IMG/VR virus record: IMGVR_UViG_3300037067_020597
Span: 10,963-74,962 of that record
Strand: one strand, 5' to 3'
From: a virus
Lineage: Duplodnaviria; Caudoviricetes
Length of the DNA: 64,000 nucleotides
The notes beneath the pieces are model-generated. The model had not been told where the DNA came from, searched no databases, and was given only the letters and a program-made list of their open reading frames with translations. Each line of letters opens with the position of its first letter. The stretch's first letter is position 1. Position numbers and translations under genes: made by a program. This document shows positions 13,935 to 41,582 of this stretch, in pieces.

Positions 13935-13945
13935 AGGGAACAGTA

Positions 13946-14347
13946 ATGCCTGACAATGATCTACTGGCAAGATCGCTTACCACCACCATCGAAATGATTC
14001 AGCCGAAAAAGGGGGTATATCAAGTTTCTCCTTTGTTGATTGGTAACGATTATGTTGCCATTGCTCCAATCGAGGTCAAGAAGGACAGTAGTATCATAGT
14101 GCCAGATGAAGAATCGACTATTGGTATTATTGTTGGAATTGGCCCGCTGGTGCCAGAGGGGATGCGTACCGCTTTTACTATTGGCAATACCGTCAGATTC
14201 AACCCCAAGACTCCGATCTGCTTGTTAGATGGGCTATATCCGTTCTATAACAAGGCGCGGATCGTCTTGACTCGATTCCACAGTATTTTGGCAGCTGTAT
14301 CTGGCGAGCCTGTTCAAGTCATTGGGCTTGATAAAGCCAAGGAATAG
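13946..14347 (+). CDS. GroES/Cpn10-like co-chaperonin
   Basis: NDYVAIAPIE, mobile-loop-like SSIIVP, GIIVGIGP, IGNTVRF pattern. Confidence 0.65.
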   Translation: MPDNDLLARSLTTTIEMIQPKKGVYQVSPLLIGNDYVAIAPIEVKKDSSIIVPDEESTIGIIVGIGPLVPEGMRTAFTIGNTVRFNPKTPICLLDGLYPFYNKARIVLTRFHSILAAVSGEPVQVIGLDKAKE

Positions 14348-14352
14348 AGATA

Positions 14353-14760
14353 ATGCCGTTTTATAATTATATCTGCAGCGATTGTATCGCTGTAGAAGAG
14401 AAAAAGATTGGTAGAGAACTCACAGAGGAAGAGCAGATTCCTCTGGTATTTGAAGTCTTCCATGCAATGTTCCCTACAAAAAAGGAGTTAGCTGAGAAGA
14501 CGCAATGCCCAGCATGTCGTGGACATAACACACACACTACTCTATTAGAGACCTCACAATCTTTTCGTATTCTTGGCGGTGATTGGCGAGAATTCAAGAA
14601 GAAAAACGCTGCGGCATTGCAGCGTGATATGGCTTTACATCAATTGGAGAATGACGACCCGTATGGGTACATGAGGACTCCGAGCGAGAAAGCTGATTTG
14701 GCTGACCAATTGCGTTCTAGTAGCAAGAAACGGCCTAAGAGGAAGCATTTTTTGACTTAA
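14353..14760 (+). CDS. FmdB-family Zn-ribbon protein
   Basis: MPFYNYICSDC...CPAC signature. Confidence 0.7.
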   Translation: MPFYNYICSDCIAVEEKKIGRELTEEEQIPLVFEVFHAMFPTKKELAEKTQCPACRGHNTHTTLLETSQSFRILGGDWREFKKKNAAALQRDMALHQLENDDPYGYMRTPSEKADLADQLRSSSKKRPKRKHFLT

Positions 14761-14761
14761 T

Positions 14762-15985: not shown

Positions 15986-16000
15986 CCAGACGGTCTTGAT

Positions 16001-16516
16001 ATGACAGAAGAAAAAATAAATTCGCCGCAATGGTTCCAAGAACACGTACCACCTGAGGTGGCTAATAGTTCTCTATTTCAATTCAACATCAAGCTACCCG
16101 ATAATAAGTCTTACCACATCAATCTGATCGATGATGTCGATATAAATTTCGAAATTCTAGAAGAACAGCACGAGCGTATTCCAGCCCAATATGTCTATTG
16201 GGCTGCTATTTACAGTGAGTTGAGATACGCCATTGCTAAATTAGAATTAAAAATCAAATCTCGCAAGCACGCAATTGTTCGCAAGATGCTTGAGGAATTC
16301 CGTGCAAGGAATATCAGAGCGACAGATAAGCAAACTGCTGTGCTTTTGGATGGCGATGCGGACCTTGTGAGATTAGAAGCCGAGTTGATCATACAGCAGA
16401 AGAATTGTGGGAAAGTATATCACATGGTTGAAGCGATTCGGCTTCGTTCCGAGCATAGTCGTTCGTTGGCTGGCTTCAAACGCCAAGAGAGAGAACAATC
16501 TGGTAGACAAACTTAA
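16001..16516 (+). CDS. UvsY-like recombination mediator
   Basis: Helical protein with the DVDINF.ILEE...IPAQY.YW pattern, located between PolA and SSB. Confidence 0.55.
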   Translation: MTEEKINSPQWFQEHVPPEVANSSLFQFNIKLPDNKSYHINLIDDVDINFEILEEQHERIPAQYVYWAAIYSELRYAIAKLELKIKSRKHAIVRKMLEEFRARNIRATDKQTAVLLDGDADLVRLEAELIIQQKNCGKVYHMVEAIRLRSEHSRSLAGFKRQEREQSGRQT

Positions 16517-16527
16517 GGAGATTTCAC

Positions 16528-17763
16528 GTGGGATATGACATTGAGACTATTAGGAATCAAGTAAGAGCCAAGATGAAGAAGGGGCGAGACCCAACAGAAT
16601 TTCGCGCCCCTAAGATTGAAGATGGCAAGACGCTGAAGTATCGATTCTACATTTTGCCGCCACTGCGAGTCGGCGACGTTTGCAATGACGGCAAAGTGAA
16701 GTGCGAACGCGAAATGGAGCTATTTGCGATTTCTAACGGTGCGCATTACATTGATAACAAACGGCTAGGCTGTCCTCGCATTATCGAGGACGAGGAATGT
16801 GATATTTGCCAATATGCCTTTGATCTGCTTCAAGAGATTGATGGTTCAACGACAGAAGGCAAGAAACGGCGAAGTGAGATTGGCAAACAATTGCTTCCCG
16901 GCCAATATCACTTGGTCAATCTTTATTTTCCGCCAGTCAAAGTCAACCCTGAAGAGTTGCGCGGCAAGGTATTTTGGTTCAATGCACCGAAGACAGTTGT
17001 TGATATTTGGCTTGAGTGCCTGTATCGCGATGACGACGGAGGCGATCCTGAGGAACCGTTGCCGTTCGGCGTATTCTTCGACGAGAACAACGCGAACCAG
17101 TTTCAACTAGAAGTGGTTAAAGACGGCCAGATGAATTCATACAAGAGGTCGAAATTCATCGGTGCGCCTCGGCCCATTGTTACAGACAAGAACACCAAGC
17201 AGGCAGATGTGAAGCGCATCAAGGAGATCCTCGCAAAGAGATACAACTTGTGGGAAAAGCTGCCTGAAATTAATCGTGATGAAATTGCTCGCGTTGCGGC
17301 TGCTTTGAGTGGTAAGGCTCCCAAGGCGGCATCCGGTGGCTTCGATCAGGATGAAGAAGCTGTCGAAGACGAGATTATGGAGACTCCACCGGCCAAGACA
17401 GAATCGAAGCAGGCCACAGCCGCTAAGGCTGCTGCGAAACCAGCCGCCACCAAGTCGTCGGCCAAACCAGCTACATCTGCCACATCTGCCAAGCCTGCCA
17501 CATCTGCCAAATCTACTGCCAAGGCAGCGCCAGCAAAGGCTAAGCCAAAGGAAGAGTTGGAGGATGAATTAGAGGACGATCTTGAGCCTGAAGCTGAGCT
17601 TGAGGAAGATTCCAATGACATCGCTGGAGAAGCTCCATTCGATGAAGAGGCTGAGGTTGGCGAGGAAGCTGAGGAAACCGAAGCAGCAGAGGTTGAAGAC
17701 GAGGGTGGCGGTGAAGATGTCGACAGCGAAGTCGACCGCCTATTAGACGAACTCGACAGCTAG
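16528..17763 (+). CDS. Single-stranded DNA-binding protein, gp32-like
   Basis: YRFYILPP, H...CP...CDIC Zn site, GKVFWF, very acidic C-terminal tail; AAGGAG SD before a GTG start. Confidence 0.75.
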   Translation: MGYDIETIRNQVRAKMKKGRDPTEFRAPKIEDGKTLKYRFYILPPLRVGDVCNDGKVKCEREMELFAISNGAHYIDNKRLGCPRIIEDEECDICQYAFDLLQEIDGSTTEGKKRRSEIGKQLLPGQYHLVNLYFPPVKVNPEELRGKVFWFNAPKTVVDIWLECLYRDDDGGDPEEPLPFGVFFDENNANQFQLEVVKDGQMNSYKRSKFIGAPRPIVTDKNTKQADVKRIKEILAKRYNLWEKLPEINRDEIARVAAALSGKAPKAASGGFDQDEEAVEDEIMETPPAKTESKQATAAKAAAKPAATKSSAKPATSATSAKPATSAKSTAKAAPAKAKPKEELEDELEDDLEPEAELEEDSNDIAGEAPFDEEAEVGEEAEETEAAEVEDEGGGEDVDSEVDRLLDELDS

Positions 17764-17780
17764 CAGTATGTCGTAAATTC

Positions 17781-17820
17781 CAGGGCGAGAGTTCGATTAT
17801 CGGGCTCTCGCCCTGTTTGT
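17781..17820 (+). terminator. Rho-independent terminator after the SSB gene
   Basis: CAGGGCGAGAG/CTCTCGCCCTG 11-bp stem, extendable, followed by TTTGT. Confidence 0.8.
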
Positions 17821-17821
17821 T

Positions 17822-18709
17822 ATGAGGGATGTTATGGCTCAGAAATGCGCACTATTGGTAGACGCCAGGAATTTGATGTATCGGGCAATCTTTGCTAATA
17901 GAAAGCAGTCAAGATATCGCAATCAGCATCCTTTCACCATTATGTTACGTTTCATGGTGGGTTGGCTAGACAAGTTCAAGCCAGAGAGTGTCAATATATT
18001 TTGGGATGCAAAGCGATCTACTCTGTGGAGAATGAAAGTTTTTGTTGGTTATAAAGATAAGCCTGATAAATATACAATCGATATCAAAGATGAGCTAATT
18101 AGTACGCAAATTGCTGCGAAAGCCATGTTCTCATACATGGGATGTAGGCAGTTTAGCAAGGATCGGATGGAAGCGGACGACCTAATCTATGCTACATGCA
18201 AAGTCTTAGCTCCATCGCCTATTGTAGTATGCTCTTCTGATAGTGATTATCAACAGCTGGTATTTCGTATGTCTCACGTCAAATGCTTTGATCCTATGCG
18301 TGAGACTTTTATGCCTCTTCAAGATTACGATCCTGTAATACAAAAAGCATTATGCGGCGATAAATCAGATATGATTAATGGTTATACTGGTATAGGACCA
18401 ATTAAAAGCACAGCTATGGCTAGATCCAGCGTGGACAGACAGAAATTTCTCGACACAGCAGGTATGAAGCCGTATATCAGGAATCTATTATTAATAGATT
18501 TATCACTATGTCCTGACTTACTCAAGAACCAATTATATGTGCAGCGAATATTAGACGCACAGCCGACTTTTGATAAGAATAAATTGTTTGATCTGGCTCG
18601 TAAATATAAAGTTGGTGGATTTGTTACAGAATATCCTAGATTAGCTGCTAGATTTAAGCAGCTTATAATTCATCCAGAGGATAAAGATGACCAGGACAGC
18701 AAGAGTTAA
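17822..18709 (+). CDS. 5'-3' exonuclease / RNase H (T4 rnh, T5 D15-like)
   Basis: LLVDARNL.YRA, FWD, WR...F.GYK, EADDLI, SSDSDYQQL, GDKSD.I.G..GIG. Confidence 0.88.
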   Translation: MRDVMAQKCALLVDARNLMYRAIFANRKQSRYRNQHPFTIMLRFMVGWLDKFKPESVNIFWDAKRSTLWRMKVFVGYKDKPDKYTIDIKDELISTQIAAKAMFSYMGCRQFSKDRMEADDLIYATCKVLAPSPIVVCSSDSDYQQLVFRMSHVKCFDPMRETFMPLQDYDPVIQKALCGDKSDMINGYTGIGPIKSTAMARSSVDRQKFLDTAGMKPYIRNLLLIDLSLCPDLLKNQLYVQRILDAQPTFDKNKLFDLARKYKVGGFVTEYPRLAARFKQLIIHPEDKDDQDSKS

Positions 18710-18726
18710 TAAAATGGTGTCATAAT

Positions 18727-18734
18727 CAAACATA
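18727..18734 (+). promoter_or_regulatory. Candidate late-promoter element CAAACATA
   Basis: 4 nt before the ATG of the HNH fusion. Confidence 0.35.
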
Positions 18735-18738
18735 TTCT

Positions 18739-20118
18739 ATGACACCCAATATGGTCGGTCTACAATTTGGTCGGCTGACAGTTCTAGAGCGAGCCCCTAA
18801 TGCTGGTAAATTTTCTGCTTGGTATTGCTCTTGTTCTTGTGGTACAATCAAGACCAAACCAATTCGCGGGTTTAGCTTAAGAAACGGTCAGACACAAAGT
18901 TGTGGTTGCATATTACGCGAGCTTTTGAATAAGCGTAATTTCAGACACGGTTGTACGAAACACTACGGCAGCACTAACAGACGTACACCTGAATATATTA
19001 GTTGGAGTGCTATGATACAACGTTGTACTAACCCGAAGCATAGATTCTATAGGAGATATGGTGGTGCAGGCATTAGGGTTTGTGATCGGTGGTTACGATT
19101 TGAGAATTTTTTGGCGGATGTTGGTCACAGACCACATCAAGATTATTCAATTGGTAGAATTGAAAATAATCTTGGTTATGAACCAGGTAATTGTAGATGG
19201 ATGGCACCAGAAGAGCAAGTAAATAATACATCATATTCACGACATATTACAATTGCAAACGAGACTAGAACTATCACGCAATGGTGTCGTCATCTGAACA
19301 TAGATGTAAGAACTGTAAACTCTCGAATTCACAGGGGATGGTCGCCAGAAGAAGCGATAGTAACTCCTATAAGAAAGCGTGAAATGGCAACAAAAGAAGA
19401 GATGTCTAGGGTTGGTAGATCTAATTCAAGACGTGGCAAATCACAGGAACGCCACGTAGCACACTTATTGACTGATTGGTCGGGGGTAGAGTTTAGGCGT
19501 AGGAAAGTAGAGGGGAGAGATGCTTCGGTAGTAGCACGCGAATCGACCGCAGACGTAATAGCGGTTCTACACGACTTTAGATTTTCTGTGGAGGCTAAGA
19601 GTGGCAAAGGATTCAGTCTTGATGCGCTAATGGGCAATCCTAATACTGCTTTATTTTCAACATGGTGGTTTCAGACTTGTTATGATGCACAATTGGTTTC
19701 TAATATCAGTGGGAATAAGATATTCCCAATGTTGTTCTTTAAGCCAAATCCAAACACTGATTGGGTTGCTTTTTCTGAATACGCTATATCAATATTAACA
19801 TCAAAACAAGACAACACCATCAAACAGGAACTGTGGTTTCCCCATATCTATTTTGGAGCATATAAGTTATCGAAACAAATTGGATCAATTACTTTTTCTA
19901 AAAAGAATAAAATTACGACAGAGATTCAGTTAGATCCGGTTATTATCTGTAGATGGAAAGATTTTGCCGCAAATGTCAGACCAGATGGACTATTTCTAGA
20001 CGAGAAGGAACCAAAGATATTAAGAAATCATCCAGAAGGTGAACCATGGCATGCGGTGGATGTGGAAATAGAAAACCAGTTAGGGTTGCAAGAGCAAGCT
20101 CAAGTAAGCCAATCGTAA
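18739..20118 (+). CDS. HNH-family homing endonuclease-like domain fused in frame to a PD-(D/E)XK Holliday-junction-resolvase-like domain
   Basis: N-half: GLQFGRLTV, EYISWSAMIQRC, YGGAGIRVCDRW, YEPGNCRW. From M at 19384: RGKSQER...ADVI...SVEAKSG. Confidence 0.75.
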   Translation: MTPNMVGLQFGRLTVLERAPNAGKFSAWYCSCSCGTIKTKPIRGFSLRNGQTQSCGCILRELLNKRNFRHGCTKHYGSTNRRTPEYISWSAMIQRCTNPKHRFYRRYGGAGIRVCDRWLRFENFLADVGHRPHQDYSIGRIENNLGYEPGNCRWMAPEEQVNNTSYSRHITIANETRTITQWCRHLNIDVRTVNSRIHRGWSPEEAIVTPIRKREMATKEEMSRVGRSNSRRGKSQERHVAHLLTDWSGVEFRRRKVEGRDASVVARESTADVIAVLHDFRFSVEAKSGKGFSLDALMGNPNTALFSTWWFQTCYDAQLVSNISGNKIFPMLFFKPNPNTDWVAFSEYAISILTSKQDNTIKQELWFPHIYFGAYKLSKQIGSITFSKKNKITTEIQLDPVIICRWKDFAANVRPDGLFLDEKEPKILRNHPEGEPWHAVDVEIENQLGLQEQAQVSQS

Positions 20119-20523: not shown

Positions 20524-21039
20524 ATGAATATGGACTTTGCGATTATCGGTGCTTGGTTAATTTGTGCGGTAGCATCTGAACGAGCAACTGAGGCTATTAC
20601 TACGTCACTATTCTTTGCACCATTACGGCAATTTCTGGGCCGGGCCGCAATAGCAGATCAGCTGACTGATAAATATGAAGAAATATTTATCAGTAGGATT
20701 TTTGTCAAAGCGGCGAAATGGTCGTCCGATTTGGTGTCGTGTGGGTGGTGTACTAGTTTTTGGACATCTCTGTTTTTCTCTTTGTTTTTGCCGGGGGGAT
20801 ATTTTTCACTTATCGCTGCCGATAATATCATAGTAAAAACTATTGCCCTCTGGGGTTTTGCAAATCTGTGGCATTCTATCTTCAGGTTAATTCATAACGG
20901 TCGTGTTGCGGCTATAGATATCAATTTGAAGATTATTGACATTGACACTGATGTAAATAATAATGGAGGTTCTGATGGAGAATTTGGAGAGGGAGTTGGC
21001 GAGGCGGACTCAATCGGAATTGAACCGCCAACGGTTTGA
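20524..21039 (+). CDS. Membrane protein, DUF1360-like
   Basis: Hydrophobic segments; ERATEAI...FFAPLR and L.SCGWCTSFW pattern. Confidence 0.55.
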   Translation: MNMDFAIIGAWLICAVASERATEAITTSLFFAPLRQFLGRAAIADQLTDKYEEIFISRIFVKAAKWSSDLVSCGWCTSFWTSLFFSLFLPGGYFSLIAADNIIVKTIALWGFANLWHSIFRLIHNGRVAAIDINLKIIDIDTDVNNNGGSDGEFGEGVGEADSIGIEPPTV

Positions 21040-21502
21040 GCCTCCTACCATACGAACCGCATCAGATATTAAGCGTGTACTGGCCCAACTAGAGCCAAGT
21101 GCTACGATTAATACGAGCGCTAGTGATGTTACTCTGGCTGCTGAGATGACTGGGACAGACACTGAAAACCGTAGCCAAAAGTTTCGTGTATCAGCAAAAA
21201 CGAAGACTAGCTCTGTGCGAGATGTCCTGCTCGAAGGGCTTAATATGGTTAAGCAAAGAGAGGAGGCAGCCGCTCAAGTTCGAGATGAGCAGATACCAAT
21301 AGCTGTCGATGGCAAAGAAATGAAATCTCCATCAGTGATGGCCGAGAATAATTTTATTGCCATCGATCCGGTGATAGGTAGAACTCTTGGCGGTTATCGC
21401 TGTGGACATTATATCCAATGGGATTTGTCCGATGGCTTTACGTATCGTTATGACATATTTGTTCACAGACTAACTAGATTCAAAACTGAGAAGAAGTTAT
21501 GA
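20975..21502 (+). CDS. Hypothetical protein
   Basis: GGAGG SD at 20965-20969 supports the ATG at 20975 rather than 20963. Confidence 0.65.
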   Translation: MENLERELARRTQSELNRQRFEPPTIRTASDIKRVLAQLEPSATINTSASDVTLAAEMTGTDTENRSQKFRVSAKTKTSSVRDVLLEGLNMVKQREEAAAQVRDEQIPIAVDGKEMKSPSVMAENNFIAIDPVIGRTLGGYRCGHYIQWDLSDGFTYRYDIFVHRLTRFKTEKKL

Positions 21503-21807
21503 GAGAAATCGAATTGCCGCCGCTAGCAACATATAAAGCATTAGCGACATGGAAGCCACGGTATGCTGACTTTGTTGTGTGGGCTGGCTGGTTCCGGGTT
21601 TGGTTCGGCCTCGTAAACAATTTCGATCCCAAGAGTGGCAAAACGTCTGTCATATTTGAAGGAACGCCAAGGTTGCTTTTTACTTTGACAGATGAAGAAA
21701 TACAAAAGAATGCATACGTTTTTGATCTGGATCATATCCGTAACAATAAACGCGGACGCTGGTATATCCAGCAGTGTATAGATGGGAACACAATCTGGTA
21801 TATCTAA
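21499..21807 (+). CDS. Hypothetical protein
   Basis: ATGA overlap with the upstream gene. Confidence 0.65.
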   Translation: MREIELPPLATYKALATWKPRYADFVVWAGWFRVWFGLVNNFDPKSGKTSVIFEGTPRLLFTLTDEEIQKNAYVFDLDHIRNNKRGRWYIQQCIDGNTIWYI

Positions 21808-22369
21808 AATCGTCCCGGTAATGCTACCGCACCCTGAACCGTTGTCGGATTTGGCAATGGTTTCCAATATGTTGTGTTATATAGTTAAATATTATCAAAA
21901 TGTCGGCATTAGCTGCCTGATAACGCATAAAGACGGCAATGTTAGTATATCAATGGGCGATTGGAACGGCCAGACGATCGACTTGGCAAATATTAAGGAT
22001 TCTATGTCTCTTGTTGCAATCGACTTCTTGCATAAACAGGGACAACTTCTGGCAGCCATATCGAATGCTGCTGGTGTCAAGCAAGCTATTTATTATTTTG
22101 CACTTGATACTGGTGTTCCGGTTTTGGTAGATATTAGGCTAAGTTTGAATAAATTTCTTGGTCCAGGGATGATTAGAGATGTATTTGGCAAGACGTTTGA
22201 TACACAGCAGATATTGAAGGTCGACGTAATATCTGAACAGTTAATTGAGCAAATCAGAGATGGAGCAGGAAATTTTGGTGATGGTGTCATAATCAAGCCA
22301 AGTAGATTTAGGTTTACTGAAGCAGATGGCAAATTGATGCCGCTTTATATTAAGGTTCAACACGATTAA
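21782..22369 (+). CDS. Possible degenerate ATP-dependent ligase / nucleotidyltransferase-fold protein
   Basis: DGVIIKP (motif IV-like) and LYIKV (motif V-like) at the C-terminus; motif I is not canonical. Confidence 0.3.
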   Translation: MGTQSGISKIVPVMLPHPEPLSDLAMVSNMLCYIVKYYQNVGISCLITHKDGNVSISMGDWNGQTIDLANIKDSMSLVAIDFLHKQGQLLAAISNAAGVKQAIYYFALDTGVPVLVDIRLSLNKFLGPGMIRDVFGKTFDTQQILKVDVISEQLIEQIRDGAGNFGDGVIIKPSRFRFTEADGKLMPLYIKVQHD

Positions 22370-22382
22370 GCGAGGTGGTGTC

Positions 22383-22910
22383 ATTTTAGTTCTAACAGCA
22401 GGGCTCCCAGCTGCGGGTAAATCGAAGGCTATAGATATTCTAGCCAAGCATAAAGAATATACTTGGCATATTATCAGACCGTCAGACTGGGTTCCTGAAA
22501 ATCTAGCTACATTGGATGAGAAAACACAACGAGAATTCAATATAGGTTGTTGGTCTGTTGCACTTGAGAAGTGTAAAGAAGCAATCGCTCAAGTACCACC
22601 TAACGAAATCATTGTATTAGATACGTGTAATTCAAAGTTTAATTCGCACGTATCGATGATAGCTGACGCAAAGAAAGCACTACATAAGGTAGTCTTGTTT
22701 TTCGTTCAAGCCAATGTTGATTTGTGTTTAGAAAGAAACTCGCAGTTGTCCAAAACATTGTTATGTGATTATGTTGATAGATTCAAGTCGTCATTACCAA
22801 AATACAAGAAGTCTTGTGATCTTTTTGTGGTAGTACGAAACAATGGGATTTTGGAACAACTCGAAACAGAATTATATGATGTTTGGAAACGATTGTGCCA
22901 GAGTATCTAA
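22383..22910 (+). CDS. P-loop kinase (AAA_33 / polynucleotide-kinase-like) with a non-canonical start
   Basis: Frame is open from 22338 with ILVLTAGLPAAGKS (Walker A) and later IVLDTCN...R; there is no ATG/GTG/TTG before the TTG at 22512; GAGGT SD at 22372-22376 lies 6 nt before an ATT. Confidence 0.75.
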   Translation: MLVLTAGLPAAGKSKAIDILAKHKEYTWHIIRPSDWVPENLATLDEKTQREFNIGCWSVALEKCKEAIAQVPPNEIIVLDTCNSKFNSHVSMIADAKKALHKVVLFFVQANVDLCLERNSQLSKTLLCDYVDRFKSSLPKYKKSCDLFVVVRNNGILEQLETELYDVWKRLCQSI

Positions 22911-24724
22911 ACCCACACCCACACGATTTGTACTTGGTTGGGCCAAATGGTGATACTATACATATTCGAAAAGGACGTAGAGTAAGACTGCCCGACTTTT
23001 TTGATCGCTATGTTAGTAAGGATAACGCTGGGACTAAAGGGTATTTAGTTAATGTCGACAAAATACCCGTAGCACCGCCTCCAAGACGAGAGATCAGGGC
23101 TGTGCGCCAGCTGGGGCGGCCAGTCAAGATAGTAAGACAGCCAATAAAAGATGTAAAACATCAACGTCCCATCGTAGGGCGTATGCACAGAAATAATGAT
23201 CCGGCACGATCAAAGAACTTTACAGGCCAAGTATATCCGATTAGCAACGGCGTTGGTGTTGGAATATTGACATATAATCGACCAGCATCGCTACGTCGGT
23301 TGATAGATTCTATTTCTCAGTATACGGATACGTGTCGCACAACTATATTCGTGAGTGACGATGGCAGCACGAACCCAGATCAACTACAATACTTAGAAGA
23401 GCTTAAATTACGTGGCGACATAATAGTTGTACAGAATAAAAACCAATTAGGTGTCGCTGGTAATAGTAATCGTTTGATGAGGTGTCTTTCACGCTTTCCT
23501 AAGAAACTCCTATTGAACGACGATGTTGAAATATTGGCAGAAGGGTGGGAGCATTTTTATTTTTCGGTAATGCAACGAACCAATTTTCATCATTTTTGCT
23601 ACCGGCAGCCTGGAGTATATGGCGCTGTCAAAGGAAATAATGTAACAGTAAATGGCGTTGTTTTGAATGTCGTGGATAATAAACCGCACGGCGCTGTAAT
23701 GGCATTTGATCATACTGCTTTTTCTAATATTGGATATTTTGATGAGCAGTTTGGGCAATATGGTGTTGAGCATGTAGATTGGTCTACCAGGCTGTCGGAT
23801 AGCAAGCTACAACAACCTGGTTTTTTCGATGTCAATGGTTCTGACGCATATTTTATAGTCCATGCAGAACATTCGGCTGTGGAAAATAGAATTGAAAAGT
23901 TTAGAGCGGCTAAGGCAATATTGAATAAAGTTGGCGTCAGACCTGTTTATGTTGAGGCTAGTGATAAAACCATGGTGCCGCGCATATCATGTGTGATACC
24001 ATTTCGGGAAATCGACAGAAAAAGCTCTATATTTACTGTTCTTAATAATATCAGAGCACAACGATTTCCAGATATTGAAATCGTGATGTCCGAGGAAGAT
24101 GAACGATCTAAAATTAAGGATAATGAATGTGCTCCTGCAATGCACATTTTTACAGTGGGACAGCCAAGCGCAGCATTCAATAAGAGTAAAGCGTGGAATG
24201 TTGGCGTAAGCATATGTACATGTGACATGCTAGTCTTACATGATGCAGATACTTTAGCACCTGGTGAATATTTTCAAGCAGTCGCTGACGAATTGACTAC
24301 AGCAGAATCATGCCATCTTTGCAAGCAGATATTTTACATAGGCGCAGCTGCGACAGAAGCAATTAACTCAACTGGTGTAATTAATCGGCCACCGTATGAT
24401 CTATTAGTCGATTATTTTGAAGGTGGTACAATTGCATGTCGCCGAAAAGCATATTGGAGAATAGGCGGCTTCTCCGAAGAATTTGTGGGATATGGTGTAG
24501 AAGATAACGATTTTTATTTTAGATTGTCGAAGGCCACTATTTGGCGTGAAAACAGACATTTCGATCTTTTACATCTATATCATATAAGAGTTAATAATTG
24601 GGCGGCATTTCATAAAAAGAACAAAGAATTAGGGCAGAAGCTCGATGCATTGTCGCTCAATGATAGAATAACTCGCCAGCGTCAATTGTTAATCAGAAGT
24701 GGGCGTGGTCATCATTTAGATTAG
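22895..24724 (+). CDS. Two-domain GT2-family glycosyltransferase with a small extra N-terminal domain
   Basis: GILTYNRP, VSDDGS, LLLNDDV, FDEQFGQYGVEHVDW; second domain SCVIPFR, FNKSKAWNVG, LHDAD, FSEEFVGYGVEDNDF; GTG start gives MPEYLNP. Confidence 0.88.
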   Translation: MPEYLNPHPHDLYLVGPNGDTIHIRKGRRVRLPDFFDRYVSKDNAGTKGYLVNVDKIPVAPPPRREIRAVRQLGRPVKIVRQPIKDVKHQRPIVGRMHRNNDPARSKNFTGQVYPISNGVGVGILTYNRPASLRRLIDSISQYTDTCRTTIFVSDDGSTNPDQLQYLEELKLRGDIIVVQNKNQLGVAGNSNRLMRCLSRFPKKLLLNDDVEILAEGWEHFYFSVMQRTNFHHFCYRQPGVYGAVKGNNVTVNGVVLNVVDNKPHGAVMAFDHTAFSNIGYFDEQFGQYGVEHVDWSTRLSDSKLQQPGFFDVNGSDAYFIVHAEHSAVENRIEKFRAAKAILNKVGVRPVYVEASDKTMVPRISCVIPFREIDRKSSIFTVLNNIRAQRFPDIEIVMSEEDERSKIKDNECAPAMHIFTVGQPSAAFNKSKAWNVGVSICTCDMLVLHDADTLAPGEYFQAVADELTTAESCHLCKQIFYIGAAATEAINSTGVINRPPYDLLVDYFEGGTIACRRKAYWRIGGFSEEFVGYGVEDNDFYFRLSKATIWRENRHFDLLHLYHIRVNNWAAFHKKNKELGQKLDALSLNDRITRQRQLLIRSGRGHHLD

Positions 24725-24733
24725 GATAACAGC

Positions 24734-25693
24734 ATGCGTGTGTTATTTTGTAATAAACCCGGTGGTGCATGGGGTTTCGTTACTGAGAGTATGATAAACG
24801 CACTTCGTGATGTTGGCATAGAGACAGCAAGATGGGATGGTAACTACAATACTTGGCAGTCTTTTGCTCCGGATGTTTATATTGGATCGAGCGGCCATAA
24901 GCAGCCGATACCGAGTGTGCGATCATGTAAGGTCGCACTGCAAGTAAATCCGTTTGGCCCAATTAAAGTAGAGCCAAACATCAACGAATCAACTGATACG
25001 ATTGAATGGGTTAAATCGGTGCGACCGAATGTTGTCTTCGGCTATGCACATGAAAGCGATCGTTTTTATTGGTCATATTGGGCAAACGTGGCCCAATGGA
25101 TTCCGATGGCGACAGCTGGAGATGTCACGATATTTAAACATACAAATGGAACACATAACCAATTCGATATAGGTTATGTCGGTGGCCGCTGGCCATATAA
25201 AGCCCAAGATATAGATGCCTATTTATTGCCGGTATTGCGCGATAAGTCTATATCGCACAGAGTATGCGGATGGGGCACATGGCCAGAAGGATTATGTTCC
25301 GGCAAAATCACAGATGAAGAAGTGCCAATATTGTTGGCAAGTTGTAAAATTGCACCGTGTATTAGTGAACCTCATACACTAGAACATGGAATCGATTTGC
25401 CTGAAAGGGTGTTTAAGGCGGCATTAAGCGGTGCAGTTGTAGTTCACGATCCTGCGAAGGGTCTAGAGAGATATCTTCCACACGCAATAATAGCAAGCAA
25501 CCCTAAGTCATTCCATTTTGAGATTAGGAGCCTACTTGCTGATCAGAGCTTTTTGTCAAGCATAGCTGAAACACAGCGCCAAGATGTTTTACAAGCCCAT
25601 ACATATCATCATAGAATGGCTACGTTGATGACGTCACTGGGATTTGACGGGGAAGCAGAGTCGCTGTTATGTGCAGTAGAGAAATTTAAATGA
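24734..25693 (+). CDS. GT-B glycosyltransferase, CgeB / Glyco_trans_1_2-like
   Basis: DIGYVGGRW, ERVFKAALSG, HTYHHRM pattern. Confidence 0.75.
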   Translation: MRVLFCNKPGGAWGFVTESMINALRDVGIETARWDGNYNTWQSFAPDVYIGSSGHKQPIPSVRSCKVALQVNPFGPIKVEPNINESTDTIEWVKSVRPNVVFGYAHESDRFYWSYWANVAQWIPMATAGDVTIFKHTNGTHNQFDIGYVGGRWPYKAQDIDAYLLPVLRDKSISHRVCGWGTWPEGLCSGKITDEEVPILLASCKIAPCISEPHTLEHGIDLPERVFKAALSGAVVVHDPAKGLERYLPHAIIASNPKSFHFEIRSLLADQSFLSSIAETQRQDVLQAHTYHHRMATLMTSLGFDGEAESLLCAVEKFK

Positions 25694-26658
25694 TTGCAAT
25701 AGACTTTTCAATGTTAAGCCAAAACAGACTGCCACGCTGTGCATATCAGCTTGCAAATTTGGCAGAAATAGCAGATCGTATGCATCTTTCTGTGAAGGTA
25801 ATAGCTACCGATAATCAATTAGCAAAAATGCCGATTTTGCGGCGCGTTGAACATCTAATATCAAATGATTATACTGATGTGACCTTGTATATCGCGAAAT
25901 CAGACACATTTTATTTCGATCGCAATTGGAGAAATATAGAGAATCTACTAGCCTATAAGGTTTGTTTAAGTTCGTCTGATAGAGTTTTCAGAGAAAGAGA
26001 TGGCAGTTGGAAAGGAGAATCCGGTGGTGCTGTTCAGAATCGATGCGATTTGTATATGCCAGTGAATTGTACTCCACAGCTATTGCAGAGCCATGGTCAT
26101 AAGACGATCCCTGTAGCACACCGGACCTCAACACAAGTTTTTGATCTATTTGCTAAAATGGGGTTAGATTATGCTTATCTTGATGATGATGTTCAAACCA
26201 TCAGAGACGCTTTTACGGTAGAGAATATCGGGTTAGCCGGTTTTATGGGACGCAGTGGATATGGTGAGCGACGTAACACAAGCGGCATGCCGACATGGGT
26301 CAATTTACTATGGGTTGCCGGAGCATCAGCACATCAATATATTAAAAACTTGCTCTCTTATACAGCTTGTGTCGATTTGCGTGGTGCTGGCGATAAAAGT
26401 CTACGATTTATAGAAGCTGTTATATTTGGACGCACAATAATAACGAGGCAACAGAGATCGCCATATCTTCCACCTTTGATAGATGGACACAATGCCATTA
26501 TCGTGAAAGAATGGAGTGAATTGGATTCACGTGTTGATTTGCCGCTTTGGCAATCTGTCGTTGAACAAGCTACTAAAGATTATTTGACACACTGGTCACA
26601 ATTAGCACAGTTTAAGATGATACTAGAAAGGGCTGGATATGATCAACATAGTGCTTGA
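25690..26658 (+). CDS. Putative GT-B glycosyltransferase
   Basis: DLRGAGDKSLRFIEAVIFG...LIDGHNAIIV resembles the donor-binding region of GT-B enzymes; coupled to the upstream GT. Confidence 0.55.
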   Translation: MIAIDFSMLSQNRLPRCAYQLANLAEIADRMHLSVKVIATDNQLAKMPILRRVEHLISNDYTDVTLYIAKSDTFYFDRNWRNIENLLAYKVCLSSSDRVFRERDGSWKGESGGAVQNRCDLYMPVNCTPQLLQSHGHKTIPVAHRTSTQVFDLFAKMGLDYAYLDDDVQTIRDAFTVENIGLAGFMGRSGYGERRNTSGMPTWVNLLWVAGASAHQYIKNLLSYTACVDLRGAGDKSLRFIEAVIFGRTIITRQQRSPYLPPLIDGHNAIIVKEWSELDSRVDLPLWQSVVEQATKDYLTHWSQLAQFKMILERAGYDQHSA

Positions 26659-26965
26659 ATTCGATGCAGCCGATAAGAAGATTTTTAGATTTACTATACG
26701 TAGTGAGGAAGATTGGATCTCCCACCTATCGTCTGGCGATGAAATAGGATTCGATCTTGTAGAGTCAAAAGAATTCTTTTATGTTACAATATCACGTCGT
26801 GTGTATCTGGTCGGCCACACAGAGCCGATTTATGTGATATGCGTCCCTACGAAATTTAAGACAGTCAACGAAGCAGAGAAATTTTTTGATAAGTTCAAAA
26901 AACAATTTGGTAATGATTTATCAATTGATAGAGATGAAACTGATATTTTAGAGCAGCCAGAATAG
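26639..26965 (+). CDS. Hypothetical protein
   Basis: 108-aa ORF overlapping the GT stop. Confidence 0.6.
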   Translation: MINIVLEFDAADKKIFRFTIRSEEDWISHLSSGDEIGFDLVESKEFFYVTISRRVYLVGHTEPIYVICVPTKFKTVNEAEKFFDKFKKQFGNDLSIDRDETDILEQPE

Positions 26966-27313
26966 CTAAATTCTCATGATAAGTTTTTGATCTGGTTCGT
27001 ATTCAAGTATCTCTACATCGAATACGAAAACATCTTTGAGTACTCGTGGATAAGTGAATTTTATTGCTTGCCATCCTTTTTTATCCATCCATTTAGCATC
27101 GCGTATATCTAGTTCTACTGTGCCACAAAACCATTCTTCAGGGAGATTCCTTCTAGCGAATCTCATTGCTATGTGTGGATCTTCGAATACAGGAACTATG
27201 GGCCTATCTTTTTCACGTATTACTAAGATAGGCACCCATTTTTGAGTTCCACATTCAACTTTCATTTCTTGGGCTGTCATTTGCCCTTGCGTGCAGAAGA
27301 GGCAATAAGTCAT
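26966..27313 (-). CDS. Hypothetical protein
   Basis: 115-aa ORF coupled to the upstream minus-strand gene. Confidence 0.6.
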   Translation of the reverse strand: MTYCLFCTQGQMTAQEMKVECGTQKWVPILVIREKDRPIVPVFEDPHIAMRFARRNLPEEWFCGTVELDIRDAKWMDKKGWQAIKFTYPRVLKDVFVFDVEILEYEPDQKLIMRI

Positions 27314-27552
27314 AATGGCGGTAGTGGTAGTTCTTTGCGAGTAGAGAAATATTTAAATGCAGCTTGCAGCTCTTCAGACGAGAACCCTATATCGAGGATG
27401 CAGTCTCGCCATCGTTTAGCATATCTAGATATTAGAGCATATTCCATACCAGTTATTGGAACAGCTGTACCATTCTTCCTGCAAGTACATATGGTCCTGT
27501 CATACTCCTCGGTATTTATGTAGTATTGCTCTGCTAAGTCATAGACATCCAT
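27310..27552 (-). CDS. Hypothetical protein
   Basis: 80-aa ORF with ATGA overlap. Confidence 0.55.
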   Translation of the reverse strand: MDVYDLAEQYYINTEEYDRTICTCRKNGTAVPITGMEYALISRYAKRWRDCILDIGFSSEELQAAFKYFSTRKELPLPPL

Positions 27553-29087: not shown

Positions 29088-29132
29088 CAACTTATTCTCA
29101 TCTCTGTAGTCGGTAAGTAAGTATCCTTGTCT

Positions 29133-29140
29133 CAAAGATA
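29133..29140 (+). promoter_or_regulatory. Candidate late-promoter element CAAAGATA
   Basis: Intergenic, before the gp13-like neck gene. Confidence 0.35.
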
Positions 29141-29159
29141 TGACGGAGGATCTGAGTAT

Positions 29160-29921
29160 ATGGCTATAGTTGGACCAAATGATTTGCCTGTGGTTTTAAA
29201 GCTCAACCCAGATCCAATGAAGGCATACGCATTGGCTCAACTTGGGCATCCGGCTGTTAATGTAGAGATTTCTGAAGCTCAATTTGAAATAGCTCTGCGC
29301 ACTACTTGCGATTTTATAGCTGGTTATTTTCCTAGAGAACAGAAGCTTGCTCTTTTTTATACAGAGCCGTTAGTTCCAACTTACGCGATGCCAGATGATG
29401 CCTATTGGATTCAAGAAGTTCAATGGGACCCGGTTACAACTCGTATCGATGATGTCTTTGGTGCAGAAAGCTTTCTATTTAACATCGGCAATATTTCTGG
29501 TATTCAGAACATCCTGACAGATTATTATTTGTTGCAGGCGTATCGTCGGTCTTCTCAACAAATTCTTGGAACTATAGGGCATTGGGATGTGCTTAATGAA
29601 GGCGGACCTGGACCAGGCAATCAACTTATAAGATTGTATCCGACACCAAAGGGTGCTTTCCCTGTGACTGTTCTTTATTATCCAACTATCACACATTTTC
29701 GCAGCCCACAAGCACGCATGCTGGCCAGTGAGATGCTTCTGGCTGAAACGAAAATCATGGTCGGCGCTGCTCGTAGAAAAATTGCTGGAGTCCCGATGCC
29801 TGATGGCGGTAGTCTCGCTTTAGACGGCGAAGCACTAGCCAGTGAAGGAAAAGAGGAAAAAGCCGCTTTGATTGAAAAGGCCGTGCATTTGGGAGAGCCC
29901 ATGCCCATTATCAAAGCATAA
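29160..29921 (+). CDS. Neck / head-completion protein, gp13-like
   Basis: LGHPAVNVEISEAQFEIAL, LIRLYPTP, GG.LALDGEAL..EG.EE pattern; GGAGG SD. Confidence 0.7.
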   Translation: MAIVGPNDLPVVLKLNPDPMKAYALAQLGHPAVNVEISEAQFEIALRTTCDFIAGYFPREQKLALFYTEPLVPTYAMPDDAYWIQEVQWDPVTTRIDDVFGAESFLFNIGNISGIQNILTDYYLLQAYRRSSQQILGTIGHWDVLNEGGPGPGNQLIRLYPTPKGAFPVTVLYYPTITHFRSPQARMLASEMLLAETKIMVGAARRKIAGVPMPDGGSLALDGEALASEGKEEKAALIEKAVHLGEPMPIIKA

Positions 29922-29957: not shown

Positions 29958-31985
29958 ATGCAAATTCAAGAACTCGACATCAATATTACATCAGCTACGG
30001 ATCTCAATAATCTCGCTTTTGGTGACTTCAACAGATTGACGAGCGATGCTGCCTACACAATCAGCGGAATAGCGTCTGGAGAAGGTAGCGGAGATGGCAT
30101 ACCAACTAATGCTATATTGTTTATCAATGTAGGGTCATATCGTATCGATTTCGCTAATGAGAGTGGAAATACCACAGCTGCGAATAGGATTATTACATTA
30201 ACTGGCGGTGCAGTTAGCATTCCGCCGCGCGGGACGATAGAGCTTGTTTATGATGTTACAAGTAGCAGATGGAGAGAAGTTAATTCTGTGACGGAACCAT
30301 CGAGATCTCCATCGCCATCTTGGTTATCACCGTCATTTTCGCCATCACCTTCTTTGTCTACATTATTCTCACAATCGCCATCTTTATCGCCATTATTTTC
30401 GCAGTCGCCATCTACATCACCATTTCCTGGTATATTATTAGGGAGGGGTTGCACCTTTTCTGCGGGATCTACTACGAACATTTTAGATGATAGATGCTCC
30501 GAATCTTCAATTATTATCTTATTAGAATTCGATAGTAAAATCGGGGAACCACATAACCAGTTAGTGTCTTATATTTCTAATAAAACTACATCGGGGTTTG
30601 TTATAAATCATGTAAATGCACAAGGTAATGAACTCGCATCTTATATCATGATTAATGACACAAGCGGTGCCGTAAAAACAGGTAGCGGTACGCTGGAAAA
30701 TGGAACATCTACTGTTATTTATGATGCCAATGTGAACGTGGATTCTAAGATATTTTTGCAAGCTACGAGTCCAGGTACATTTGAAAAATTCCCTGGGATT
30801 ATCAATAAGTCTAATGGCTCTTTTGAAATAGCACACGGATCTGCAAGTGGCATTGAGACATTCGATTATGCTATATTTAATATGGAGAGCGGTACGGACG
30901 GCATTTGTCTTGGAAGTGACACATTGACTATAGGAACTTCTACAACTGTGACTGATCCGTTATTACCCTGTGGTACTATGGTCTTTTTGCAGGCTACATG
31001 CGCGTTATTTAATATTTATTGGAAACTATACAACACCGGTATTGATAGCATCATTCTTTCTACTAGCGCTGCTGCAGGCACGGAAACTTTCGACTATATT
31101 TCATTTCCTAGAGATGTAATATGTTTTCCGTCACTATCTCCATCACTATCACCATCGTCATCACTATCACCATCGTTGCCATCGCCGTCATTATTGTCGC
31201 CATCTCCATTTCCTGATATTCTTTCTAGAGGTACGTGTGTGCTTAGCGCAGCTACTTCTACTACGGTTTATGACGAGAACGTGTCGCCAACTTCGATAAT
31301 TATTACATTAAAATCAGATAATAATCAAGCAGCATATCTTTTATGTGTCAGTTCTAAGTCTAATGGTTCATTTGTGATTACGCATAATCAAGGACAAGGC
31401 AATGAATTAATCAATTATATTGTTTTGAACGGATCTAACGAGATGATTGGGGCTAGCAGTGGCACGCTTAATGCTGGTACTAGTACAACTATTAACCATC
31501 CTCTTGTTAACCCATATACGAAAATATTTCTACAAGCAACTGGATCGACCTGTAATACTTTTATGAGATGGCCAAGAGTTTTTAATCAGATGGGATCTTA
31601 TTTTACAATTGGACATGAAAACGCTGCTGGCATAGAAACGTTTGATTATGCCATCTTTCGTATAGATATTGATACATATGATGGTATCTATTTGGGCAGT
31701 GGCGAACTAAGCATACCTCCAGCTACTGATACAACTATCATGAATGCTGGTGTTACAGCTAATTCAACAATTTTATTACAATCGACAAACGCTCAAATGT
31801 ATGGCGGCAATCCAACTTATGCTTATTGGCGAATTAAAACAAAATCTGAAGGCTCATTTGTTATTGCTTCAAATTTTGTGGATCATGCATCTTTTAGCTA
31901 TGCTGTGATTAATGGTGGAGCACCTATTCCTTCGGCATCGCCGTCACCCTCTCCGTCACCGTTATCATCACCATCACCGGAGTAG
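29958..31985 (+). CDS. Virion fibre/decoration protein with duplicated repeat modules and Ser/Pro linkers
   Basis: Two ~250-aa units (PFPGILLGRG / PFPDILSRG) with recurring KIFLQAT...GIETFDYAIF sub-repeats, separated by SPSPS tracts. Confidence 0.6.
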   Translation: MQIQELDINITSATDLNNLAFGDFNRLTSDAAYTISGIASGEGSGDGIPTNAILFINVGSYRIDFANESGNTTAANRIITLTGGAVSIPPRGTIELVYDVTSSRWREVNSVTEPSRSPSPSWLSPSFSPSPSLSTLFSQSPSLSPLFSQSPSTSPFPGILLGRGCTFSAGSTTNILDDRCSESSIIILLEFDSKIGEPHNQLVSYISNKTTSGFVINHVNAQGNELASYIMINDTSGAVKTGSGTLENGTSTVIYDANVNVDSKIFLQATSPGTFEKFPGIINKSNGSFEIAHGSASGIETFDYAIFNMESGTDGICLGSDTLTIGTSTTVTDPLLPCGTMVFLQATCALFNIYWKLYNTGIDSIILSTSAAAGTETFDYISFPRDVICFPSLSPSLSPSSSLSPSLPSPSLLSPSPFPDILSRGTCVLSAATSTTVYDENVSPTSIIITLKSDNNQAAYLLCVSSKSNGSFVITHNQGQGNELINYIVLNGSNEMIGASSGTLNAGTSTTINHPLVNPYTKIFLQATGSTCNTFMRWPRVFNQMGSYFTIGHENAAGIETFDYAIFRIDIDTYDGIYLGSGELSIPPATDTTIMNAGVTANSTILLQSTNAQMYGGNPTYAYWRIKTKSEGSFVIASNFVDHASFSYAVINGGAPIPSASPSPSPSPLSSPSPE

Positions 31986-41581: not shown

Positions 41582-41582
41582 T

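Follow-up and report, generated by a model that had tools for sequence, protein, structure and literature searches.

We analyzed a 64,000-nucleotide stretch (hereafter the window) comprising bases 10963–74962 of the 74,962-bp IMG/VR viral contig IMGVR_UViG_3300037067_020597, in which three glycosyltransferase (GT) genes lie side by side. According to CheckV the source contig is 21% complete and thus represents a piece of a phage of about 350 kb; Pfam and PHROG scans revealed a T4-like myovirus layout across the window. The original prediction for this DNA had described a double-GT2 gene, a CgeB-like GT-B gene and a third GT-B-like gene, and had proposed that they glycosylate virion proteins with Ser/Pro tracts and collagen repeats. 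Gene calls, Pfam searches and fold predictions confirmed three co-oriented and tightly packed GT genes, whose products are designated here P0001, P0002 and P0003 (Table 1). The first two matched Pfam families above the cut-offs, while the third was recognized by its AlphaFold2/Foldseek GT-B fold only. The GC content at the cluster is even with its surroundings (0.40–0.41 versus about 0.42 overall), so that the cluster does not look recently imported. As detailed below, it is a conserved, phage-specific, putative glycan-building module, whose acceptor, donor sugars and timing of expression are inferred.

P0001, a GT2-like protein (PF00535 and related families), matched Glycos_transf_2 (53.1 bits, cut-off 23.3), Glyco_tranf_2_2 (55.7 bits, cut-off 27.3) and Glyco_transf_7C (57.5 bits, cut-off 23), and its AlphaFold2 model (predicted local distance difference test score, pLDDT, 89.1) has the GT-A three-dimensional fold. 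In the model, a small beta domain (residues 1–60) and a disordered linker (63–94) precede GT-A domain 1 (about 120–356) and domain 2 (about 366–592), the latter with a beta4GalT-like Glyco_transf_7C motif. Residues D159-D160, N212-D213-D214, H453-D454-A455-D456 and the beta4GalT-like E540-D541 are invariant among 42 homologs, 43–75% identical to the query. Since both DXD motifs are invariant in these sequences, both predicted active sites of P0001 look catalytically intact. No transmembrane segments were found in P0001, P0002 or P0003, and the maximum 19-residue Kyte-Doolittle score of P0001 is 1.1.

Two-domain polymerases occupy the top Foldseek ranks for P0001: K4CP (E 5.7e-16), LARGE1 (1.5e-12), PmHS2 (2.7e-12) and CHSY3-CHPF (1.8e-11). 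K4CP (2z86, from E. coli K4), PmHS2 (8vh8, from P. multocida) and LARGE1 (7zvj), which head both the Foldseek and the VIA matches, likewise carry two GT-A domains with a DXD motif each in one soluble chain. At the sequence level, P0001 matched chondroitin synthase and beta4GalT7 (E about 7e-5 to 9e-5) and, weakly, K4CP at the 7C motif. However, identity to K4CP, PmHS2 and LARGE1 is 10–17%, P0001 has an extra 60-aa (amino acid) N-terminal beta domain and a disordered linker, and the two domains appear to be arranged differently: two-domain superpositions on proteins of this type gave a root-mean-square deviation (rmsd) of 9–22 Å over about 400 residues and a TM score of about 0.26. Structure comparison listed PmHS2 (score 19.2; 230 residues; 3.5 Å), the polypeptide GalNAc-transferases ppGalNAc-T4, T12, T10 and T2 (17.5–17.8; 219–235 residues; 3.0–4.8 Å), K4CP (17.7; 414 residues; 22.1 Å) and TarP (17.6; 193 residues; 2.7 Å). 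The polypeptide GalNAc-transferases (GT27, mucin-type initiation) were statistically tied with TarP, WrtF and PmHS2; identity to them is 13–15%, and P0001 differs from them in having no ricin-type lectin domain. Taken as a model, the architecture of P0001 resembles that of bifunctional synthases of the glycosaminoglycan (GAG) type, while its single domains are equally like protein, teichoic-acid and polysaccharide GTs, and the predicted fold does not name the acceptor.

Eight of the 81 members of the P0001 family considered below (L016, L017, L018, L019, L034, L060, L066 and L078) contain an insertion of 146–360 aa that interrupts the domain-2 catalytic loop, GYG-(C)ED, directly behind the conserved GYG (after residue 538). 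It starts with Cys-Phe in the three relatives for which the junctions were printed, and Pfam Intein_splicing was detected on several P0001 homologs. These active-site insertions therefore appear intein-like. Inteins favor indispensable sites.

P0002 matched Pfam Glyco_trans_1_2 (PF13524) with 60.5 bits (cut-off 25, E 2.2e-16) over profile positions 16–143 of 144; it had no sequence relatives in the PDB at E ≤ 1. P0003 had no match among Pfam, PHROG and NCBIfam models, and 14 of 18 distant relatives were equally without a family match, the other four being matched only via a separate C-terminal GT1 domain. Its AlphaFold2 model (pLDDT 90.1, predicted TM score 0.90) has the two-Rossmann GT-B fold. 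The Foldseek search of the PDB with this model returned 272 matches (E ≤ 0.001), headed by GT4-type and similar enzymes, namely MshA, GlgM, BshA, WaaG and glycogen synthases, with a probability of 1.00 for the first four; its neighbors in the viral library were led by GT-B proteins of giant viruses (including CgeB-like and GT1 proteins) and of uncultured tailed phages. Among candidate NDP-sugar-binding residues of the C-terminal domain, R231 is nearly invariant in an alignment of 19 sequences, and G232, G234-D235-K236-S237, R239, E242 and R248 are invariant. An origin of P0003 as a paralog of P0002 was considered and rejected, as BLASTP detected no similarity (E 0.48). NCBIfam named none of the three GTs, the matches being far below threshold (e.g., MftF, 41 bits versus a cut-off of 280). 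In sum, the three genes apparently encode real, active GTs with four predicted GT domains, all of them soluble.

To define the distribution of the cluster, IMG/VR was scanned with a P0001 profile. The scan yielded 126 relatives, of which 80 loci with flanks of up to 10 kb were kept; together with the window they form the set of 81 loci used here. Many loci are cut by contig ends, and the synteny counts are thus lower bounds. P0001 had 438 homologs at E ≤ 0.001, the 120 listed being 40–100% identical and lying on contigs of up to 388 kb; P0002 had 200 homologs. For P0003, 20 close homologs were found, and a search of 1.84 billion representatives yielded 72 at E ≤ 0.001. Full-length relatives of P0001 were present in no more than three of 185,579 species genomes, in each case on a contig of a metagenome-assembled genome. 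The three are assigned to unrelated phyla (Promethearchaeota, Melioribacteraceae and Nitrospirales), and mis-binned phage DNA would be the simplest explanation. The P0001 family is effectively phage-restricted.

According to clustering of open reading frames (ORFs), the two-domain GT gene is present in 81/81 loci and the CgeB-like GT gene adjoins it in 73/81. The gene order DUF1360 / 179 aa / 102 aa / 195 aa / (kinase, 34 loci) / two-domain GT / CgeB-like GT is conserved, each member other than the kinase being found in 68–81 of the 81 loci. Upstream of the GT pair there are always replication and recombination genes; tblastn detected single-stranded DNA-binding protein (SSB) and UvsY-like genes in 72/80 loci and exonuclease and PolA genes in 68/80 each. 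The downstream content differs by subclade: (i) in the near clade, to which the window belongs, the pair is followed by P0003 (17/81), the 108-aa ORF and the neck module (neck gene in 24/81); (ii) in other subclades, by genes for Glyco_tranf_2_5 (28 loci), GT2 (8), a weakly sulfotransferase-like protein (24) and GDP-mannose 4,6-dehydratase (GMD; 13 loci, E 1e-134); (iii) in a third group, by primase and baseplate genes. Therefore, the description of the cluster as standing before neck and tail genes holds for the near clade only; what accompanies the GT pair throughout is the replication module. Accessory GTs vary among related phages. We conclude that the two-domain GT and the CgeB-like GT are, as predicted from these loci, the core pair of a wide jumbo-phage clade.

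Between positions 20201 and 26965 every intergenic gap is shorter than 35 nt. Profile searches of the PDB were empty for the 179-aa protein (below E 0.2) and for the 102-aa protein (below E 0.06), and Pfam, PHROG, PDB-profile and protein Atlas searches were all empty for the 195-aa protein. The frame of the kinase-like gene is open from 22365, and its P-loop precedes the first ATG, GTG or TTG; the gene may have either an ATT start overlapping the previous TAA stop or a decayed 5' end. Its relatives matched AAA_33 (E 2.6e-13); the homolog in the complete relative G001 is 186 aa long with a normal start, and that in the close relative L002 is short (84 aa). The original prediction placed the GT genes directly before the neck and tail genes. 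Even in the window this is not the case, since the 108-aa ORF, two convergent minus-strand ORFs (26966–27552) and three small ORFs intervene before the first neck-like gene. Promoter scans were uninformative on timing, both for the T4-type late promoter TATAAATA (5 matches versus 4.2 expected) and for sigma-70 promoters (43 versus 34 expected).

Table 1. Features of the window (positions from the first base of the window).
Feature	Position	Strand	Evidence and remarks
DNA polymerase III alpha	129–2933		Pfam/PHROG
Collagen-like (G-A-T rich) tail-fiber protein	3044–4663	+	Pfam Collagen; tail-fiber PHROGs to E 3e-25; unannotated PHROG E 2.9e-35
Second collagen-like tail-fiber paralog	4673–6223	+	Pfam Collagen; tail-fiber PHROGs to E 7.5e-24
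Uracil-DNA glycosylase (UDG)-family protein	after the two collagen-like fibers		Pfam/PHROG
RecA/UvsX, DnaB, PolA fragment, UvsY-like, gp32-like, 5'-3' exonuclease, HNH/PD-(D/E)XK endonuclease	11078–20118		
Small genes without assigned function, then glycosyltransferases	GTs 22883–26658		
DUF1360-like small hydrophobic protein	20524–21039	+	first gene of block; Pfam DUF1360 26.1 bits (cut-off 21); 71/81 loci
Conserved 179-aa protein	20963–21502	+	74/81 loci; no Pfam/PHROG match
Conserved 102-aa protein	21499–21807	+	68/81 loci by clustering, 71/80 by tblastn; no family match
Conserved 195-aa protein	21782–22369	+	76/81 loci; most constant GT neighbor
P-loop kinase-like protein (AAA_33/KTI12-like)	22365–22910	+	overlaps GT start; 34/81 loci
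P0001, predicted two-domain GT-A glycosyltransferase, 613 aa	22883–24724	+	Pfam, AlphaFold2, conserved motifs
P0002, predicted CgeB-like GT-B, 319 aa	24734–25693	+	Pfam Glyco_trans_1_2 (PF13524)
P0003, predicted third GT-B (GT4-like), 322 aa	25690–26658	+	AlphaFold2 + Foldseek; near clade only
108-aa ORF	26639–26965	+	ends co-oriented run; overlaps P0003 end; 12/80 loci; no family match
Neck-like gene	29127–29921		PHROG adaptor match weak, E 1.8e-4
P0004, 675 aa, three Ser/Pro tracts between repeated beta-rich modules	29958–31985	+	candidate acceptor, virion status unproven
Sheath	35780–38632		
Three tandem T4 gp19-type tail tube paralogs (177, 192, 215 aa)	40432–42146		
P0005, 973 aa, 141-residue Ser/Pro linker	47156–50077	+	candidate acceptor; baseplate/tail-fiber region
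Hub and baseplate genes	reaching 62598		
Small cupin	62609–62980	+	Cupin_2 27.5 bits (cut-off 27.2); WbuC-family 26.5 (cut-off 42)

The glycan-related gene content of the clade was studied in G001, a complete (100%) and collinear relative; another relative, G002, is 99% complete. The Pfam scan of G001 (E ≤ 1e-5) covered 150 of the 381 ORFs unmatched in the contig of the window, 176–852 aa long, and left out 14 of the 164 ORFs of 170–900 aa, eight of which spanned two fetched pieces. GT domains turned up in ten more genes: GT2 in three, GT1 in two (in one case as a fusion with a methyltransferase), and GT10, GT11, GT25, Galactosyl_T and Glyco_transf_7C in one each. Together with the collinear homologs of P0001–P0003 and a GT2-7C fusion, G001 carries at least 14 GT genes. 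In addition, it encodes an FkbM methyltransferase as well as GMD and an epimerase/reductase, the latter two sharing a strand and lying inside the head module, with the Gp23 capsid gene on one side and the portal gene on the other. The lipid-carrier families Bac_transf (PF02397), Glycos_transf_4 (PF00953) and Polysacc_synt (PF01943) were each detected in none of five near-clade records, the searches being positive in 9, 12 and 13 of 14 controls, respectively. Since lipid-carrier genes are absent from these records and the GTs are soluble, the data are most simply read as glycosylation of soluble acceptors in the cytoplasm, although host lipid carriers and exporters might be used instead. The idea that a cupin and a flavoprotein in the window supply donor sugars was not backed by family matches: the cupin exceeded the Cupin_2 cut-off barely and stayed below the WbuC-family threshold, so that a tie to sugar metabolism is only hinted at, and the supposed flavoprotein, an ORF at 6218–7129 on the minus strand, had no family match at E ≤ 0.1.

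We next consider the candidate acceptors. Ser/Pro tracts, defined by a 15-aa window with S+P+T ≥ 70%, were indeed found where the original prediction had located them, namely in P0004 (30291–30422, 31125–31214 and 31917–31982) and P0005 (48137–48559), and both collagen-like fiber genes were confirmed by Pfam. A strict DNA pattern, (S/T-P)x3.5, occurs five times in the window versus 0.04 expected, and none of 100 shuffles reached five. Altogether, such tracts are present in three large proteins of the contig. The only family match of P0004 is a weak one to K1-lyase_C. P0005, whose neighbors are a dockerin/F5-F8-type-C "tail protein" and a primase, had no Pfam or PHROG match at E ≤ 0.001, and its N-terminal domain gave no hits in the protein Atlas; its homolog in G001 retains the Ser/Pro linker. 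As a side observation, the neighboring 926-aa "tail protein" (44374–47154) contains a type I dockerin domain (E 2.4e-10) and an F5/8 type C (discoidin) carbohydrate-binding domain.

The third tract-bearing protein lies outside the window. It is the product of the first gene of the contig (L008:427–3204), a 925-aa collagen-like protein with Ser/Pro tracts and a tail-fiber PHROG match (E 2e-5). Directly after it there is a second GT cluster (L008:3450–5610), in which the first gene product resembles MptE/DUF115 (24.3 bits versus a Pfam cut-off of 34.6, i.e., below threshold) and the second is a fusion of GT2, Glyco_transf_7C and MptE-like parts (GT2 70.5 bits). At the same place G001 has two fiber-like proteins with long Ser/Pro and "GPTTTS" mucin-like tracts, followed by an extra GT2 gene and the same two genes. 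Judging by this arrangement, the second cluster fits the idea of mucin-like substrates better than the cluster originally flagged.

Among the near-clade records, the strict pattern occurs in four of five (G001, 7; G002, 15; G003, 3; G004, 0; G005, 5), and among ten distant carriers of the GT pair it is absent from five (G006, 5; G007, 0; G008, 2; G009, 0; G010, 0; G011, 155, as TP repeats; G012, 0; G013, 0; G014, 3; G015, 6), with the reservations that the near clade is one lineage and that no jumbo phages free of such GTs served as controls, so that the comparison speaks neither for nor against an association. Reversed-pattern controls gave 0–9 matches per record, both strands summed; those of G014 and G015 are probably fortuitous, having mixed codons and being no more numerous than controls elsewhere. 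By the broad criterion, likewise applied without GT-free controls, long tracts in a few large proteins were found in all four genomes examined (G000, 318 residues; G001, 697; G007, 227; G009, 285). Those of G009 include a 160-residue poly-Ser stretch, and Pro-rich fiber-like proteins of G007 match tail-fiber PHROGs. It should be added that a plant-like O-glycosylation of hydroxyproline in the Ser/Pro repeats was considered and dropped here, PF13640 being detected in none of the five near-clade records; a lead for it is a 2-oxoglutarate (2OG)-Fe(II) oxygenase gene located upstream of the module in 13 of the 81 loci, all of them distant.

We propose that the three genes would supply the catalytic activities of a module, specific to phages and acting in the cytoplasm, that builds glycans. 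In the proposed scheme, P0001 would add two successive sugars or alternate two, as bifunctional GAG-type synthases do, P0002 and P0003 would add further sugars, the latter as a lineage-specific elaboration, and the kinase-like gene and the four conserved small proteins would belong to the same block. The acceptor would be a soluble protein made by the phage, most plausibly a conserved virion component and possibly fiber proteins too, so that the particle would leave the cell already glycosylated, resembling chloroviruses and mycobacteriophages. That the acceptor is a phage (virion) protein is our preferred but tentative reading, to which we give somewhat less than an even chance.

Several known systems bear on this reading. 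Work by Freeman et al. published in Cell Host Microbe in 2023 reportedly described virion glycosylation in mycobacteriophages, where the glycans sit on Ser/Thr tails at the C-termini of capsid and tube proteins. Glycans on the mycobacteriophage capsid and tail tube are also mentioned in a later report (PMC12619734). As in the present phages, soluble GTs are encoded there by a tailed phage, and GT-A domain 1 of P0001 has its best GenBank-phage matches in annotated GTs of mycobacteriophages Lucky2013, LittleE, ScoobyDoobyDoo and Squint. However, these matches show 24% identity over 35–42% of the query, two GT-A domains are joined here in one chain and followed by two GT-B enzymes, and the module belongs to the core genes of a jumbo-myovirus clade, in which it sits beside replication genes. 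Chloroviruses and giant viruses (PMC9614988, PMC5408694, PMC7019647) share with G001 the many virus-encoded GTs, GMD and the epimerase, and glycosylation that would be cytoplasmic and independent of the host endoplasmic reticulum and lipid-carrier routes; giant-virus proteins are also among the fold neighbors of P0003. Unlike them, the present virus is a tailed bacteriophage with a T4-type capsid, portal and sheath, known from its genes alone.

A literature search found no paper on this module. The nearest one is the report on "moraphage" jumbo phages (PMC12619734), a large aquatic lineage with T4-like structural genes, DNA polymerase I, SSB and core GTs. It lists four core GT orthogroups with the function left open and, in its accessible part, gives no GT architecture, synteny or acceptor analysis.

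Several observations weigh against a virion protein as the acceptor. The GT pair follows replication genes, and convergent ORFs part the cluster from the structural genes; because of this position beside the replication module, early or middle expression and a DNA-related role would fit equally well. A neck module stands after the pair in only 24 of the 81 loci, and the similarity to mycobacteriophage GTs is limited to 24% identity over 42% of the query. Neither P0004 nor P0005 matches a virion family, contrary to their earlier description as virion proteins. Moreover, P0004 had no relative in IMG/VR in a search using exact-peptide seeding only, and its slot is empty in L007 and occupied by a TnsA-like/HTH (helix-turn-helix) endonuclease gene and small ORFs in L004 and in L005/G001; the gene is apparently strain-specific and located in a mobile-element hotspot. 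The strict Ser/Pro pattern is missing from the pair carriers G004, G007, G009, G010, G012 and G013, three of which (G007, G009 and G010) are 100% complete, and the comparison of Ser/Thr/Pro tracts was run without a set of GT-free jumbo phages. Thus, the original interpretation is supported in part: the GTs are real and apparently active, DNA glycosylation is disfavored, and the lineage possesses a large toolkit but lacks lipid-carrier genes. The link of this cluster to the Ser/Pro tracts is not supported: the core pair, found in 73–81 of the 81 loci, is always tied to the replication module, three complete carriers lack the strict tract, and the 675-aa protein is hotspot-borne. The pairing of the operon with Ser/Pro and collagen proteins is, on the present sequences, unproven and in part contradicted.

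The structural likeness of P0001 to two-domain polymerases, which head its Foldseek list, together with its sequence matches to chondroitin synthase and beta4GalT7, raises the possibility that the module makes or modifies a polysaccharide, either by remodeling host surface glycans (lipopolysaccharide, capsule or teichoic acid) against superinfection or through a GAG-like polymer made by P0001 in the manner of K4CP, PmHS2 and LARGE1. The tied structure matches include TarP and TarS, the GTs of wall teichoic acid, accessory GTs differ between related phages, and Iyer et al. 2021 (PMC7824862) read GT clusters of jumbo cyanophages as a means of diversifying outer polysaccharides against other phages. 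We nevertheless consider this explanation unlikely, though it deserves serious attention: the near-complete relatives have neither an initiating phosphoglycosyltransferase nor a Wzx flippase (whose roles the host's own enzymes might fill), membrane segments are lacking in the GTs, the two-domain alignments have an rmsd of 9–22 Å, which suggests a different domain arrangement, and a core pair that is near-universal and syntenic is unexpected for a host-specific envelope function. An acceptor of still another kind, such as a non-virion phage or host protein (e.g., the 195-, 179- or 102-aa neighbors), a small molecule or RNA, with the virion left unglycosylated by the cluster, seems improbable to us. 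Four conserved neighbors without family travel with the GT pair in 68–76 of the 81 loci, small-molecule enzymes (MshA, BshA) head the fold list of P0003, and the NCBIfam resemblances, far below threshold, are to small-molecule GTs (MftF); however, no positive evidence speaks for any specific alternative, and the toolkit size of G001 and the presence of GMD inside its head module indicate a structural product.

That the GTs put sugars on phage DNA as a protection against restriction, as in T4, RB69 and the clusters dependent on methyltransferase (MT)/5mYOX enzymes, would agree with the position of the cluster at the 3' end of a co-oriented run that opens with RecA, DnaB, PolA, SSB and exonuclease genes, with the kinase-like gene directly upstream, and with the 2OG-Fe(II) oxygenase found upstream in distant subclades. 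Pyle et al. (bioRxiv 10.1101/2023.12.21.572611) describe phage GT-A and GT-B enzymes that place mono- to trisaccharides on 5-hydroxymethylcytosine (5hmC), lie near polymerases, helicases and structural genes and, in the case of the GT-B enzymes, have MshA and BshA as top folds, as P0003 does. In the published routes, according to this work and to Lee et al. 2026 (PMC13326640), sugars are attached to 5hmC, 5-hydroxymethyluracil (5hmU) or 5-hydroxycytosine (5hoC), made by ThyA homologs or MT/TET-type enzymes, the ThyA family being named as the 5hoC maker (PMC13326640). All described routes need a hydroxylated pyrimidine, but the ThyA family (PF00303) was found in none of five records (G000–G004), two of which are 99–100% complete, while 10 of 14 controls were positive. 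Tet_JBP (PF12851) was also absent from the five records, although no control genome matched it either, and 2OG-FeII_Oxy_3 was absent from the five near-clade records. The scan of 150 G001 proteins (E ≤ 1e-5), which included no separate search with PF00145, detected no Tet, 2OG or C5-methyltransferase domain. The same scan found ThyX and thymidylate kinase, which indicates an ordinary supply of dTMP (thymidine monophosphate), as well as Dam-type and N6/N4 methyltransferases. Finally, the four GT domains here and, in G001, at least 14 GT genes, GMD and genes of the fucosyltransferase family and of sugar methyltransferases exceed any described DNA glycan. DNA glucosylation, already disfavored from the window, is thus disfavored beyond it as well, and we regard DNA as a very unlikely acceptor.

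With virion-protein glycosylation retained as the preferred reading, a far-reaching version of it would be host-independent cytoplasmic protein glycosylation on the scale of giant viruses, in which the P0001 enzyme, with its two active sites and its intein-bearing relatives, would build on virion proteins a polymer of repeating disaccharides (matriglycan- or GAG-like). Methyltransferases, enzymes of deoxy-sugar synthesis and GTs particular to the lineage, perhaps joined by a sulfotransferase, would then tailor this chain, giving the phage a proteoglycan-like coat. We mention this version as a speculation with little chance of being correct.

Phage-encoded glycosylation of particles has so far been associated with mycobacteriophages and few GTs, and large autonomous glycan machineries with giant viruses of eukaryotes. 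The present work defines a conserved phage-restricted GT core, composed of a two-domain GT-A and a CgeB-like GT-B enzyme, on 126 IMG/VR contigs. Because this core is conserved and the complete relative combines 14 or more GT genes with a lack of lipid-carrier genes, the data suggest that a whole clade of environmental jumbo phages may be self-sufficient in building complex glycans. Should the virion be the acceptor, adsorption, resistance to proteases and grazing, and recognition would be affected, and the enzyme pair would be tractable for glyco-engineering; if it is DNA or the host envelope, a new route of hypermodification or of superinfection exclusion would be implied. Either way, the module is a concrete target for heterologous expression.

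Some further observations were made in the course of this analysis. G001 encodes two adenylosuccinate-synthetase homologs (L083:7255–8472 and L085:6253–7458), which we presume to be possibly PurZ-like, and a protein with a GmrSD_N domain; these candidates hint at a non-glycosyl DNA base modification in the clade. Between the sheath and tube genes of the window (38694–40295, plus strand) there is a 533-aa HNH/homing-endonuclease-like region fused to a C-terminal Mom-family domain (Pfam Mom, E 2.5e-18). Its homologs occupy differing positions (L003:16543–17817 on the minus strand, L005:20135–21106 and three places in G001), and it looks like a mobile endonuclease with a Mom-like DNA-modification domain. 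The neck gene adjacent to P0004 is interrupted in L003, where the product of L003:18267–18974 diverges after about 105 residues into an unrelated sequence starting with Cys, as if by an intein or an insertion.

Amid the tail/baseplate module there is a gene for a Toprim DNA primase (50098–51186); primase and baseplate genes are likewise adjacent in a distant subclade, where they stand immediately after the GT pair. The strongest terminator-like site within 17.5–30.5 kb is a perfect GC-rich hairpin of 16 bp with a T-run behind it (17781–17815), located immediately past the gp32-like SSB gene. Upstream of the window on its own contig, L008:5719–7080 encodes an actin-fold protein (Pfam Volactin, E 2.8e-42, 145.8 bits) with 83% identity in G001, which is predicted to be a phage-encoded actin homolog of a jumbo phage. 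DNA polymerase III alpha is apparently split: L008:7361–8926 encodes the PHP domain and the beginning of the alpha domain, along with weak Hint/intein signals, and the finger/HHH part is encoded 2.2 kb downstream by the window gene at 129–2933; a TnsA-like ORF and small ORFs are located between the two parts.

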